From Mobula hypostoma (taxonomy: Eukaryota), in assembly GCF_963921235.1 (NCBI RefSeq), contig NC_086097.1, positions 167,898,001 to 167,962,000 of the forward strand: DNA of 64,000 nt, given 5' to 3'. Of this stretch, positions 5,461 to 16,581 are shown piece by piece. The notes beneath the pieces are model-generated. The model saw only the letters and a list, made by a program, of their open reading frames with translations. It made no database searches and was not told the origin of the DNA. Each line of letters begins with the position of its first letter. Position 1 is the stretch's first letter. The translations under genes and the position numbers were made by a program.

Positions 5461-6015
5461 TGCCAGTGATGTATTGGGCTGCATCCACCATGTTCTGCTG
5501 CTTCTTGTGTTCTTGTGCATTCAAATTGCCTCACCAGTCCATTATGTGACCCATCAGTATACTTACAACAGTACATCTGCAGAAATTTGTAGTGTTCAGT
5601 GAGTCAGGTAATACCACAGTGGATTGGGACACAGCCAGGAAATCATGAGGCAGGATCAGAGGGATCCAAGACATATCGGGCAATCCACATTCAATCCTGA
5701 CTTTGAGCACTGTCTATGTAGACTTCATATATGCTCCCTTTGACTGCGTGAATTTCGTCCATTTTCTTGTGAATTCCCTACCCTATGCATCTCAAAGATG
5801 TGCAGTTTAGAAATTTAATGAACCACATATATTGGCATTAGTATGTGGGTGAGTGTTAGAATCCAGGGGGGATAGATGAGAATGTAGAGGAAAGAAAGGG
5901 TTAGTGCAGGATTGGTGTAAATGGAATTGTAGGTCAGTGTCTCTAATCCAGGCAGTGTTCTGGTAAATCTCCTCTGCACTCTCTCTAATAATAATCCTTC
6001 TTATAGTAAGGCCAC

Positions 6016-6211
6016 TGTTATGTTACTTCTGTTTAAATGTACCATGGGTTAACAGTAAAGAATCATATTCTGGAAGAATTAGAGAACTTTTATTTACAGT
6101 AATAAACACATCTTAACCCAACCATTTGCTGGAACATTCTGGCAATCCCGCGCATGCTCAGTGCTCTGTCCAATCATGTACTGGCACATCATTGCACGTG
6201 ATATCACCACA
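6016..6211 (-). repeat. 3' LTR
   Basis: Direct repeat of 7946-8145 (by eye about 8-10 substitutions plus one 4-bp indel); TG..CA ends. Confidence 0.93.
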
Positions 6212-6224
6212 TCTTCCTTTCCTT
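6212..6224 (-). other. Polypurine tract (AAGGAAAGGAAGA)
   Basis: Pure purine run on the minus strand directly abutting the 3' LTR. Confidence 0.85.
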
Positions 6225-6251
6225 AAAAAGAAAAACAAGTAACAACATTAA

Positions 6252-6410
6252 TCAAAACACATCTATATCAGATAACTGAAACTCTGAAGTTGGCGCTTTC
6301 TTAAAGCCTTTGGGATTCTTTCTTAACACTGCTCCCTCCTCTGTTTGGACCATGTATGATCTGGTCTGTGTCCATGGGTTCCTTTTATCTTGTATCCTCA
6401 GTTTTTCTCC
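6252..6410 (-). pseudogene. Retrotransposon Pol/integrase C-terminal remnant
   Basis: GEKLRIQD...W...TRSYMVQTEEGAVLRKN resembles the G-x2-VR...W...RSY-x-V-x-T-x2-G-x3-RRN tail of Gypsy Pol. Confidence 0.7.
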
Positions 6411-6458
6411 TTGTCCTTCAGACAAATATCTCCTTAGATCAGTCAATTCATGTTCCAC
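6410..6458 (-). pseudogene. RABEP1: Captured Rabaptin-like fragment, part 2 (VEHELTDLRRYLSEGQ)
   Basis: Matches recalled Rabaptin-5 AEREIADLRRRLSEGQ, the direct continuation of part 1. Confidence 0.75.
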
Positions 6459-6585
6459 CTCCATTTGTAATGAAATACGGATCTTCTTTTCTTTATCTAA
6501 TTCATTCATTAACTGTGTAATCTCTTTTTTTATGCTGACACTCCATCATTTAAATAATACTTCTTAATTCCTTCATTTATGCTTT
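6451..6585 (-). pseudogene. SH3KBP1: Captured CIN85/CD2AP-family C-terminal coiled-coil fragment
   Basis: KA*MKELRSII*MMECQHKK(fs)EITQLMNELDKEKKIRISLQMEV versus recalled CIN85 [43 protein letters not shown]; two stops and a +1 A in an A7 run. Confidence 0.8.
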
Positions 6586-6870
6586 CACTGCTTCCTTATA
6601 CTGTGCCCACTGTGAGTGTTCTTGCTCTAGACGGTGATGAAACTGAATCTCATATTCTCTCAGTGTCTCTTTCATCATCGCTTGCATTGAAGCAACCTCC
6701 TCCTGCCATTGCATTTTCACATCATCAATTGCCTCCTGTTTGGTCGTCTCAGACACTGTAGCTACTGCTTTTATATTCCCCATGTCAGCATTTGCCTCCA
6801 TGAGCTGGACTTGCAGTCGAGTTACATCACCTTCTGCCGACTGTTATGCAACTTTCTATCACTTCAGCTC
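6586..6870 (-). pseudogene. RABEP1: Captured Rabaptin-like N-terminal coiled-coil fragment, part 1
   Basis: ELK**KVA*QSAEGDVTRLQVQLMEANADMGNIKAVATVSETTKQEAIDDVKMQWQEEVASMQAMMKETLREYEIQFHHRLEQEHSQWAQYKEAV versus recalled Rabaptin-5 DLKRQNAVLQAAQDDLGHLRTQLWEAQAEMENIKAIATVSENTKQEAIDEVKRQWREEVASLQAVMKETVRDYEHQFHLRLEQERTQWAQYRESA; a RABEP2 paralog is not excluded. Confidence 0.88.
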
Positions 6871-7850
6871 TTGTGTCACTATCCAAGGCAAAAATTCTTT
6901 TCATCAAATTAAGTCTTTCACAGGCAGGGCAGATAAACCCAGAATTGACTGTACATTTTTTGGCACGACCACAAATGAAAGCTTATGCACAATATTTTTG
7001 TGTAATACCTTTGCCACGCATGTCCCTTTAACTGGAATGTCTGCACCTGTATACCCAGTCACGTTTATATTTGTCTGATATAACTTCGGTCTTGGCTTTA
7101 AAGCATTAAACTCAGATTCTGCAAGAACATTTACTTGTGCTCCAGTATCAAGTTTAAACAGATTATTGTTTTGATTCACTTGCAAAGGAATAGTCCAGTC
7201 ATTCTTACTTTTGTTTATTTTCACAAAGCACATCGAGATAAAATTCCTCATGTTCGTCTTCAAGCACAGCATTATTATTATATTTCTTGATGTATTCACG
7301 CTTTTGTTTTACAGCGTTTACATTGCAGTTTTCAACAAAAAGCTCTTCAGCCTGCAACGTCACAGTCTCAGAAACTTTGTAAAGCGCCAAAGCTTTTTCA
7401 AAATTTAAATCTTGCTCTCTCAACAGCCTTTCTCTCAGAGCATTATCTCGAATGCCACAAACAGGTCTATCTTTAATGAGAGAGTCCGTGAGCAATCTAA
7501 ACTCGCATGGTCTACTACGCTTCCTTAACAGTAACATACCGATCAATTGTTTCAGCGGCTCTCTGCGCACGTGAAGAATTTATATCGCTCATACGTTAAG
7601 TTATGCTTAGGTATACAAAATACTTCAAATTTGACCATTATCAACTTTAAATTGAAATTATCACCATCTTCAAAAACAAAATTATTATATACCTCTACTG
7701 CGTCATTCCCGATTACATGGAGCAAAAGCGCAGCTTTGGTAATCGATTGCTGAATGATAAGTACAATTCAAACTGTGGCTTGAATATCCTCCAGTTCTCA
7801 GCTACATTGCCAGTCAGCTGAAGTTTTGGTGGGGGTTGTAAACCTTCCAT
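6871..7850 (-). pseudogene. Decayed gag plus aspartic protease of the LTR element
   Basis: Starts MEGLQPPPKLQLTGNVAENWRIFK at 7850; LIKDRPVCGIRDNALRERLLRE gag motif; FKLDTGAQVNVL protease active site; several frameshifts. Confidence 0.88.
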
Positions 7851-7927
7851 TTTACTGTTTACAGTTCGACCTTTTTTCTTCTCTTTTATTTTCGATTATC
7901 TTCGATTCTCCCGTATTATTTTTCCAG

Positions 7928-7945
7928 ACCCCACGTCTGACACCA
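7928..7945 (-). other. Primer-binding site, tRNA-Leu
   Basis: TGGTGTCAGACGTGGGGT immediately after the 5' LTR; 16/18 match to the complement of the vertebrate tRNA-Leu 3' end (ATCCCACTTCTGACACCA). Confidence 0.85.
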
Positions 7946-8145
7946 TGTTATGCTACTTCTGTTTAAATGTACCGTGGTTTAACAGTAAAGAATCATATTC
8001 TGGAAGAATTAGAGAACTTTTATTTACAGTAATAAACAAACCCGTCTTAACTCAGCCACGTGCTGGAACATTCTGGCAATCCCACGCATGCTCAGTGCTC
8101 TGTCCAATCATGTACTGGCACATCATTGCACGTGATATCACCACA
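7946..8145 (-). repeat. 5' LTR
   Basis: Direct repeat of 6016-6211; followed by the PBS on the minus strand. Confidence 0.93.
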
Positions 8146-9199
8146 GCCACCAGAACTAAACATAATACTCCAAGTGTGATCCAACCAGAGTTTAAGAGAT
8201 GCAAACTTACTTTGCAGTTCTTGACCTTGGTCTTTTGACTAATGATGATTAACACACCATACACCTTCTAAACTACTCTTATCAACTTGCATGGTAACTT
8301 TGAGGGATCTATGGACGTGAACCTCAAAATCCCACTGTTCCTTAACATTATAAGAATCCTGCCTTTATCCTTGTACTCTGCTGTCAATTTTGATCTTCCA
8401 AAGTGTATTATTTCACACTTTTCTAGATTGAACTTTTAGGAACTGGTTTTTATTGTGACATGTACCGTACATTTCACATGTCATCCTTGTAGATTATTTC
8501 ATTACCATAGTACATAGAGGTCGTTCAAAGGAAAACAATAAAGGAATGCAGAATAAAGTGTTACAGTTACAGAGAAAGTGCAGTGCAGGCAGACAAAAGA
8601 ATCAAAGGTTCATTTTATTGTCGGTGTATGTACAATACAACTCTGATATTTGTCTTGTTCAGATAGCCAGGAAGACCATGGCAGTTGATGAAAGAAAATA
8701 TATCGAAGCCTCCCACCCGGCATGAAAAAGTAAAGAAACAAAACTTGCAGACCCCAAAATCAACCCCCCCCCACAGAAAAAACAGTGAAGATAACCATCG
8801 CGACCTACTCACCCACAGAAAAAACAGCAACAACAATCCCTGACACACTTATTTGCAGAAAAGAACAGTGACAGTAGTATCAAACTCCTCAACCCCACCC
8901 CCTTACATACAAAATATTAATGGATCACCCACCCAGCAATCAGCCAATAAAGTGCAAAGCCATGGTGGGGTAGAGTGTGAGGTCAAAAGTCCATCTTATT
9001 GTACTGAGGAACCATTCAATAGTCTTATGACAGTCGAATAGATGATGTCCTTGAGGCTGGTGGTAGCACTTTCAGGCTTCTGTGTCTTCTACCTGATAGG
9101 AGGGAGGATAGAAGAGAGAATGTCCTGTGTGGGTGGGGCCATTGATTATGCTGGCTGCTTTTCCAAGGCAGTGAGAAATGGAGGGGTTCCTGGTCTCCA

Positions 9200-11830: not shown

Positions 11831-11904
11831 ATTTTCATTCTTCCTCTATGCTATCAGACTATTCAGATAGTTTGGATCAGGCTTACTATGTGATGTTTAC
11901 CACA

Positions 11905-12055
11905 TTCCATTCCCACTCACTGGGACCCCAGTTTCCACTTTCCCTTCCTACCCACTGGGAGCCTAGATCCCAATTTCCTTTCCTACCCACTGGACCCCAG
12001 TTCCCATATTCCCTTCCTTCCCACTGGGACCCCAATTCTCACATTCCCTTCCCTA
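11905..12055. repeat. Degenerate minisatellite, about 4 units of ~33-40 bp
   Basis: Recurring CCCACTGGGACCCCA...TTCCCTTCCT unit. Confidence 0.75.
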
Positions 12056-15142: not shown

Positions 15143-15271
15143 AGTAAATTTAAACCCAGCACAGAATGAATGAGAACACAAGGAAATCTGCAGATGCTGG
15201 AATTTCAAGCAACACACAGAAAGGTTGCTGGTGAACGCAGCAGGCCAGGCAGCATCTATAGGAAGAGGTAC

Positions 15272-15307
15272 AGTCGACGTTTCGGGCCGAGACCCTTCGT
15301 CAGGACT
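15272..15307 (-). ncRNA. Minimal type-I hammerhead ribozyme motif (intact core)
   Basis: AGUC-CUGACGA-A-GGGU-CUCG-GCCC-GAAA-C-GUC^GACU: helix I AGUC/GACU, conserved CUGANGA and GAAA boxes, helix II, helix III reduced to palindromic ACGU, GUC cleavage triplet. Confidence 0.8.
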
Positions 15308-15487
15308 AACTGAAGGGTCTGGAAGTCCTAACAAAGAGTCTCAGCCCGAAACTTCAACTGTACCTCTTCTTATAGATGCTGCCTGGCCTGCTGCGTTCAC
15401 CAGCAATTGTTGTGTGTGTTGCACAGAATCAACTAGAATAGGAGGGAAAAAGGGCTTTCAAATCTCTTACTATCTCTTCTTTCAGTT

Positions 15488-15523
15488 AGTCCTGACGAAG
15501 GGTCTCGGCCCAAAACGTCGACT
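15488..15523 (+). ncRNA. Minimal hammerhead motif, GAAA>AAAA mutant
   Basis: Identical to 15272-15307 except for the conserved G12 changed to A at a CpG. Confidence 0.7.
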
Positions 15524-16581
15524 GTACCTCTTCCTAGAGATGCTGCCTGGCCTGCTGCGTTCACCAGCAATTTTTATGTGTGTTGCTTGAAATTCCAGCA
15601 TCTGCAGATTTCCTCATGTTTGTGTTTTTGAATTCTCTCATTATTTGTGCTGATGCAGGAGTGGAGCTGCATGGTTTGTGCTGTTTATTTAACTGCATCT
15701 GTTCCTATGTGGAGACATTTGATGGCAACCAAACACTTGGGTCCAAACATGACTGAACAAAGAACAGCATCACCCCTGCAATGTGCAGTTGGAGAGAAAA
15801 ATGGCCCCAGGAGGAGGGGTGAGTGGGGGGGGGGTGATGGGATGGCTTCGCTTATTATTTGAGCTTCATTGTATCATCAACAGGAAACCACCCTCACACA
15901 ATCTCCAGTGCAAAGGTTCTGTGTCAGACCACAATGCTAAAGTAGTTGTTATTATTCAGCTTCATAAATGCAATGGAAAGGGGTAACTGTAATGTTAACT
16001 CTGAGAAATCGTCACCATTATGTAACCTGATGAGTGAATGGTTAGTGGCTGACACTACGCAGCCACATACTGGATGAAGCAAAATATTAGCCGGATGGCA
16101 TACACTGGTTACCATTTCCCAGGGTTGTTTTCTTTGGGGCAGTGGAAGCTGAGGGGAAACCTGATACAAGTTCATAAAATTATGAGAGGCATCTTTTTCC
16201 CAGGGTCAAAATGCTTAACACCGGAGTGTGTGCATTTAAGGTGAGGGGGGGAACGTTGAAAGGTGATTCGCAGGGCAGAGAGTGGTGAAGTGCACTGGCA
16301 GGGGTGGTGATAAAGGTGTGGAAGAGACTCTTAGACGGGCACATGAATGTGCAGGTAGTTTTGTGCCTTGGCACTGTATTGCTGCAACAAAGCAAGGAAT
16401 TTCACTGCATGTAAGACAGGGATGATGAACCTGATACTCATTATGATTCTGATATGGACCACATGCAGGCTTAGGAGGAATTCCTTTAGCCGGAGGGTGG
16501 TGTCCATTGCCACAGACGGTGGTTGGCAGGCTCTTGATTATTAAGGTTGTCAAAGATTATGGAAAGAAGGCAGGAGAATGG

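Follow-up and report, generated by a model that had tools for sequence, protein, structure and literature searches.

How did pieces of two host genes come to lie inside a retrotransposon of the ray Mobula hypostoma, and did they arrive together? The question is raised by a single locus in the window, the 64,000-nucleotide stretch of DNA analyzed here, which an initial annotation had described as an LTR element that acquired Rabaptin and CIN85 sequence in a double transduction of host mRNA.

A Gypsy element with host cDNA in place of its pol core

The locus is confirmed as a Gypsy LTR element; it lies on the minus strand and is non-autonomous, host cDNA having taken the place of the RT-RNaseH-integrase core (Table 1). 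Ty3/Gypsy hallmarks are present, including TG...CA LTRs (187/196 ungapped columns identical between the two), a target-site duplication (TSD) within the usual 4-6 nt, a polypurine tract (PPT) and a primer-binding site (PBS), putatively that of tRNA-Leu; no tRNA gene was found within the window. The element had been called intact in its LTRs, TSD, PBS and PPT, which holds for these cis signals but not for the coding part: reading frames contain stops and frameshifts, and gag has private deletions of 186, 20 and 19 nt, the largest of which (near 7274) takes out the Gag zinc knuckle. The window copy is thus a dead, decayed fossil. Other changes are family-wide, namely a 159-nt in-frame deletion that places the protease directly beside RABEP1, a 27-nt in-frame deletion near 6365 in the integrase tail, and a stop codon at 6252-6254 produced after a terminal deletion. 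In full-length relatives the pol order is PR-RT-RNaseH-IN, without env, and the integrase tail extends to the PPT, with the rve (integrase) match scoring under its curated cut-off.

Table 1 Features of the element and its borders in the window
Feature	Position	Strand	Remarks
Target-site duplication	6011-6015	.	GCCAC
3' LTR	6016-6211	-	196 nt
Polypurine tract	6212-6224	-	
Integrase C-terminal tail	6252-6405	-	Homology to full-length copies L045 and L046
RABEP1 cDNA, second piece	6406-6458	-	Same host exon continued; 51/56 nt to host exon L037
SH3KBP1 (CIN85) cDNA, C-terminal coiled coil	6453-6594	-	PDB match, host exon alignment
RABEP1 cDNA, first piece, about aa 61-157	6586-6872	-	Host exons L036 and L037; Pfam PF03528
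Aspartyl protease region	6873-7200	-	Domain about 6925-7188; DTG 7141-7149; Pfam 4.5e-7
Gag remnant, broken	7201-7850	-	ATG 7848-7850
Primer-binding site (PBS-position sequence)	7930-7945	-	
5' LTR	7946-8145	-	200 nt
Target-site duplication	8146-8150	.	GCCAC

Between the protease and the integrase tail lie 467 nt of non-element sequence, in agreement with the earlier estimate of about 460 bp of foreign sequence in place of the missing core, and the piece borders proposed at the outset proved accurate to about 10 nt. Both donors named there were also borne out. Positions 6577-6843 match Pfam Rabaptin at 5e-38 and are 94% identical to Mobula RABEP1; a PDB search with the RABEP1 piece gave no match. 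The two RABEP1 pieces, proposed at the outset as consecutive parts of the Rabaptin-5 N-terminal coiled coil, align to host exons at 195/207 and 86/88 nt (first piece) and 51/56 nt (second piece). Positions 6399-6545 match the CIN85 C-terminal coiled coil in PDB at 4e-5; where an annotated stingray copy corresponds to this region, it shares 94% identity with ray SH3KBP1. Judged by these protein identities, the genome is that of a myliobatiform ray. RABEP2 was absent among the named matches of the RABEP1 piece, and CD2AP was absent among 48 matches of the CIN85-like stretch of the annotated stingray copy. Separately, C2:30664721-30664834 shows a 58% match to the middle part of SH3KBP1 and is possibly the paralogue CD2AP.

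Both cargoes derive from spliced messages, as had been proposed: three host exon junctions are crossed without introns. Host RABEP1, on C71, has exons of 204 and 161 nt lying about 9.1 kb apart that are joined in the element at 6669/6668. Host SH3KBP1, on C18, contributes its last three exons without the introns of ~1.1 and ~2.0 kb (junctions 6530/6529 and 6465/6464), the last exon being located by position, as a back-translated pattern for it matched nothing. Copies of the window's family diverge 3.0-4.6% from the host exons, and the net CIN85 insert is 129 nt in most of them. An L1-type processed pseudogene inside an LTR element was rejected because ~2.4 kb of pol is replaced and the junctions are microhomologies; the cargo edges have no poly(A), and no TSD surrounds the cargo. 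In public sequencing runs whose RNA status is guessed, long contigs from two runs match 6586-6870 unbroken and contigs from two runs omit the CIN85 insert, as expected of spliced host message. Contigs from four runs guessed to be RNA are fragmentary, bridging two element junctions and never spanning the element.

Related families and their spread

The genome holds several related families, labeled A to E. Family A (2 fetched copies) carries RABEP1 only. Family B (5 fetched, L038-L042) carries only CIN85, joined through two different 5' junctions and accompanied by about 60-90 aa of proline-rich sequence. Family C, that of the window (30 fetched), has the order RABEP1-CIN85-RABEP1; family D (9 fetched; L051-L054, L057-L061) reads gag(-PR)-RABEP1-CIN85-probable SLU7-integrase tail in one frame; and family E (1 fetched, L055) joins RABEP1 once to CIN85 and has the 3' junction of B. 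A pattern at the start of RT gave 64 matches, and four RT-bearing copies were fetched, two of them full length. A genome search with SH3KBP1 returned 67 rows, all intron-free and within aa 513-669, and family B occurs at at least 65 places. Two pairs of B copies with identical scores (C1:168384914 and 168429807; C154:124054 and C90:5665163) are probably segmental duplications or assembly duplicates.

Family D combines the window's left junction, the 3' junction of B and a third piece of ~55 aa. This piece resembles human SLU7 458-513 (PDB, E 0.002-0.005, with compositional bias) and is a probable fragment of that nuclear splicing factor; it had no match in Pfam, a 1.84-billion representative library or the ESM Atlas. 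There are 92 candidates for it in the genome, and 40/40 of those scored match. One candidate for its host exon, L057, turned out to be another D copy, and the ray SLU7 locus, sought through this third-cargo candidate, was not found. Three of nine fetched D copies retain the protease and six have lost it, and several have a duplicated integrase tail and PPT-like tract.

Parts are shared across families. The CIN85-to-integrase junction of B is found in D and E, the RABEP1-to-integrase junction of A in C, and the 159-nt deletion in C, E and protease-bearing D. In a gag tree of 26 rows (8/31 C copies included; L048, L052 and L058 omitted for short gag), C and D group as a single clade (100/100), with A, B, E and the RT-bearing copies falling outside it. 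In the same tree, B cargo sits on at least two backbones, which indicates that cargo moved between backbones by recombination.

Other repeats occur in the same sequences. A short element with long inverted repeats is present at 2678-2878 and 15175-15632 of the window, and a similar one is apparently inserted, with target duplication, in the CIN85 piece of L060. At 11888-12052, a pyrimidine-rich unit of 35 nt is repeated four times in tandem.

Family C was copied after its cargo was assembled, as had been suggested. Querying the 3.48 Gb genome with the insert gave 466 first-look candidates, 40 of which were scored; all 40 cover at least 497/521 nt at 88-100% identity. The four cargo junctions are common to 30/30 fetched copies, and among the 14 of these with both full LTRs inside the fetched flanks (mean LTR identity, 0.92), TSDs differ between copies and are exact in seven, with one mismatch in three and two or more in four, that is, at most one mismatch in 10/14. 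A 30-nt pattern over the RABEP1/CIN85 junction had 136 matches at up to three mismatches, pooling families C and D, and a control had none. Full-length relatives carry RT, RNase H and integrase, and their enzymes would have served the defective elements in trans.

The fusions are also annotated in other rays. Hemitrygon akajei XP_072880776.1 and Hypanus sabinus XP_059819315.1 contain protease-RABEP1-CIN85 in frame, and XP_072897951.1 is a protease-CIN85 fusion. Because the same fusions occur in Hemitrygon and Hypanus, the captures appear older than the split from whiptail stingrays, which dates to the Late Cretaceous or so. NCBI labels element copies in these two genera 'RABEP1-like' or uncharacterised proteins. 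Elsewhere, a Narcine RABEP1 isoform (X9) is annotated with an RVT_1 domain and a Sinocyclocheilus RABEP1-like protein has an internal tandem duplication, both probably annotation or assembly artefacts. The available part of a Greenland shark preprint describes gene copies that consist of a single exon and have LINEs or LTRs beside them.

Junctions, reading frame and selection

Junctions with a known donor show about 5-10 nt of microhomology, with 8 nt where the second RABEP1 piece meets the integrase tail. The RABEP1 5' junction sits at an exon start, and a private variant accounts for its seemingly exact fit in the window copy. Splicing from an element donor into the RABEP1 exon acceptor was rejected as unnecessary, since the full-length sequence lacks a GT at that site and family A has a microhomology of 6 nt instead. 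Each end of the CIN85 piece is similar to the RABEP1 site, and CIN85 re-enters RABEP1 where it left, with a 3-nt overlap; family C could be the product of a single out-and-back switch or of two crossovers through a D-like intermediate.

We counted 14 junctions seen in at least two copies: nine joins (pol-RABEP1, RABEP1-IN, two pol-CIN85, CIN85-IN, RABEP1-CIN85, CIN85-RABEP1, IN-SLU7 and SLU7-IN) and five deletions (159, 150, 27, and 30 or 33 nt, and the protease loss). All 14 keep the gag frame, the SLU7 frame calls depending on the weak PDB match, and so does the single-copy junction of E. Terminal deletions of C and D that enter the 3' untranslated part, creating a new stop before the PPT-like tract, fall outside this count. 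Exact matches of 5-8 nt that pol and the cargo exons share by chance are in frame at 0.40-0.47, so that 14/14 has p about 1e-5 at 0.45. The families were located by protein searches, which may favor in-frame chimeras; for the about 10 junctions least exposed to this bias, p is about 3e-4. The five family-wide deletions, which are independent of cargo searches, are all in frame, compared with 2/7 private deletions of at least 9 nt in C copies (Fisher p=0.03), a small control that missed the window's 186-nt (in frame) and 19-nt (out of frame) deletions. Frame is kept as well at 3' junctions near the natural stop, which RNA decay explains poorly. This conservation suggests that hybrids needed translatability to spread, and selection for a single uninterrupted ORF seems to us fairly likely.

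Among C copies, decay of the cargo, PR, gag-N and tail follows a context-matched null, which also matches their raw pairwise dN/dS below 1; gag-C has a synonymous excess in two of three printed replicates. Set against the other two backbone groups, C/D has a net dN/dS of 0.06-0.44. C and D descend from a common non-autonomous ancestor, and their fixed differences in gag plus PR, 13 synonymous and 10 non-synonymous (p=0.005 against 0.29), indicate purifying selection, the synonymous excess being located in gag-C and PR and the first part of gag holding one fixed difference. This pattern would be expected if Gag-PR continued to be translated and required, or if there was exchange with helper elements. 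The cargo has no synonymous excess, either among C copies or between C and D (0 synonymous, 3 non-synonymous; Fisher p=0.22 against gag), at low power. As for a functional retrogene or an oncogene-like transduction, the cargo ORF of the window copy is broken, and purifying selection on the cargo was undetected, with low power between families.

Origin of the chimera and its precedents

We propose that a Gypsy element with gag-PR-RT-RNaseH-IN, and without env, captured spliced RABEP1 mRNA to give family A, and that a separate capture of spliced SH3KBP1 mRNA gave family B with its two 5' junctions. Both would have proceeded by microhomology-guided template switching, presumably during reverse transcription, with the RT-RNaseH-IN core lost each time. 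The defective elements, whose amplification is evident in the genome, may have multiplied with enzymes of full-length relatives, and co-packaged A- and B-type RNAs would have recombined into the existing forms C, E and D, probably in steps of which the order is our reconstruction. Family D would have gained the probable SLU7 piece, and most fetched D copies lost the protease. Spread may have been limited to variants whose single ORF began in gag and stopped close to the PPT; the probable reason is that RNA with a premature stop is unstable, or that the element's own Gag packages the RNA, and for RSV, the available part of one report describes packaging lowered by a premature stop in gag (PMC5035971). 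The cargo peptides would be tolerated passengers. Taken whole, with separate captures, recombination between element RNAs, ORF-continuity selection and passenger cargo, we hold this account to be likely.

The initial annotation had instead inferred that one element captured both host mRNAs directly, as co-localised or co-packaged endocytic transcripts. The re-entry of CIN85 at its exit site would fit a single out-and-back excursion, the CIN85 sequence of C is indistinguishable from host mRNA (a B-specific variant sought in its 129-nt piece was not present), and co-retroposition of two genes is documented in the main text of Tan et al. 2016 (PMC5131818). We nevertheless consider it quite improbable: single-cargo families A and B exist, the latter widespread, B-specific junctions occur in the recombinants D and E, and the third cargo resembles nuclear SLU7. 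Given a single-cargo family for each gene and recombinants between families, recombination between element RNAs is the most likely source of the chimera. From the original proposal, then, both donors, the spliced origin, template switching as the expected source of the microhomology junctions, and later mobilisation survive, the single double capture gives way, and co-localisation of endocytic mRNAs becomes unnecessary as a reason for the pair, D having added a probable piece of a nuclear protein. Our best reading is that family C is a recombinant of separately captured cargoes, and the CIN85 donor of C was probably B RNA rather than host mRNA.

The two remaining alternatives concern what was selected. 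If the cargo itself were, its coiled coils and the lysine-rich SLU7 stretch might serve as oligomerisation, endosome-tethering or nuclear-targeting modules on Gag-PR. Two independent captures both stop within coiled-coil regions, every fusion is in frame, the founder cargo was nearly host-identical (in C, 3 differences are family-wide over about 390 nt) and cargo-bearing families count tens to hundreds of copies. This explanation nonetheless appears unlikely in view of the cargo's missing synonymous excess (a weak point), a 43-codon insert that is no multiple of seven and the inclusion in B of proline-rich sequence besides the coiled coil. Cargo of C and D is also purine-rich (0.64-0.68 versus 0.56 in pol), which would favor microhomology whatever the protein function. 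Conversely, frame may have been unselected, with codon-biased microhomology and our way of finding families explaining the in-frame junctions and later copying being neutral. Chance microhomologies are indeed in frame above one third of the time (up to 0.47), and decay within C is neutral in most regions; the uniform frame of all 14 shared junctions, and of the five family-wide deletions against the private ones, makes this doubtful.

The mechanism is already known. In animal LTR-mediated retrocopies, according to the main text of Tan et al. 2016 (PMC5131818), truncated spliced mRNA replaces the internal ORF, with microsimilarity at switch points, chimeras of two to four genes and secondary retroposition as non-autonomous elements. 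The ray families share the intron-free host mRNA in place of an internal ORF, the microsimilarity, the multi-gene chimera and remobilisation with identical switch points. They differ in having tens to hundreds of copies rather than a few insertion sites, in the coexistence of single-cargo families and recombinants where that text describes multi-gene cases as co-retroposed, and in that we assessed continuity with gag whereas frame was there considered relative to the parental gene. Maize Bs1, as described in the parts available of PMC5131818 and PMC13317346, is likewise an LTR element with three host-gene pieces and switch points common to all its copies, but these number one to five, one of its pieces is out of frame and a host function has been proposed; the ray families are animal, far more numerous and in frame throughout, with host function undetected.

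Among vertebrates, KIT-ligand and nectin3 in crocodilian ERVs (Chong et al. 2014, PMC4299795) and HERV-K FAM8A1 (as cited in the main text of Tan et al. 2016, PMC5131818) are similarly captured host mRNAs amplified by a retroelement, the crocodilian ones in several species. In the accessible account, the crocodilian elements are retroviral, with a single gene, 6-9 copies and cargo under purifying selection, unlike the Gypsy-borne, shuffled fragments of the ray, where cargo selection was undetected. Plant TR-GAG elements (PMC8704663) are a further case of LTR elements that lack autonomy yet retain a Gag ORF and transpose; the available text describes no host cargo in them, whereas most ray families keep the protease and extend the ORF with host peptides. 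A search that was thin on subscription literature turned up no publication dealing with RABEP1 or SH3KBP1 capture or with these ray families. What is new is the traceable stepwise cargo shuffling together with frame conservation.

In these families, LTR-mediated exon shuffling in a vertebrate can be followed through a series of fossils, since parents with a single cargo, crossovers and a product of three genes all persist in one genome. A bolder possibility, to which we give little credence, is a long-lived exon-shuffling network, amplified to hundreds of copies, in which host modules passed from backbone to backbone as in-frame extensions of Gag-PR and the RABEP1 and CIN85 coiled coils were kept because they altered oligomerisation of the fusion protein or linked particles to host trafficking partners; if true, it would be a retrotransposon analogue of gag-onc fusions. 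Frame conservation raises a question testable from sequence, namely whether full translation of a non-autonomous LTR RNA is required for its copying. For annotators there is a warning as well: because element copies are labeled as host-like proteins, what looks like an expanded gene family in elasmobranchs can be transposon cargo.
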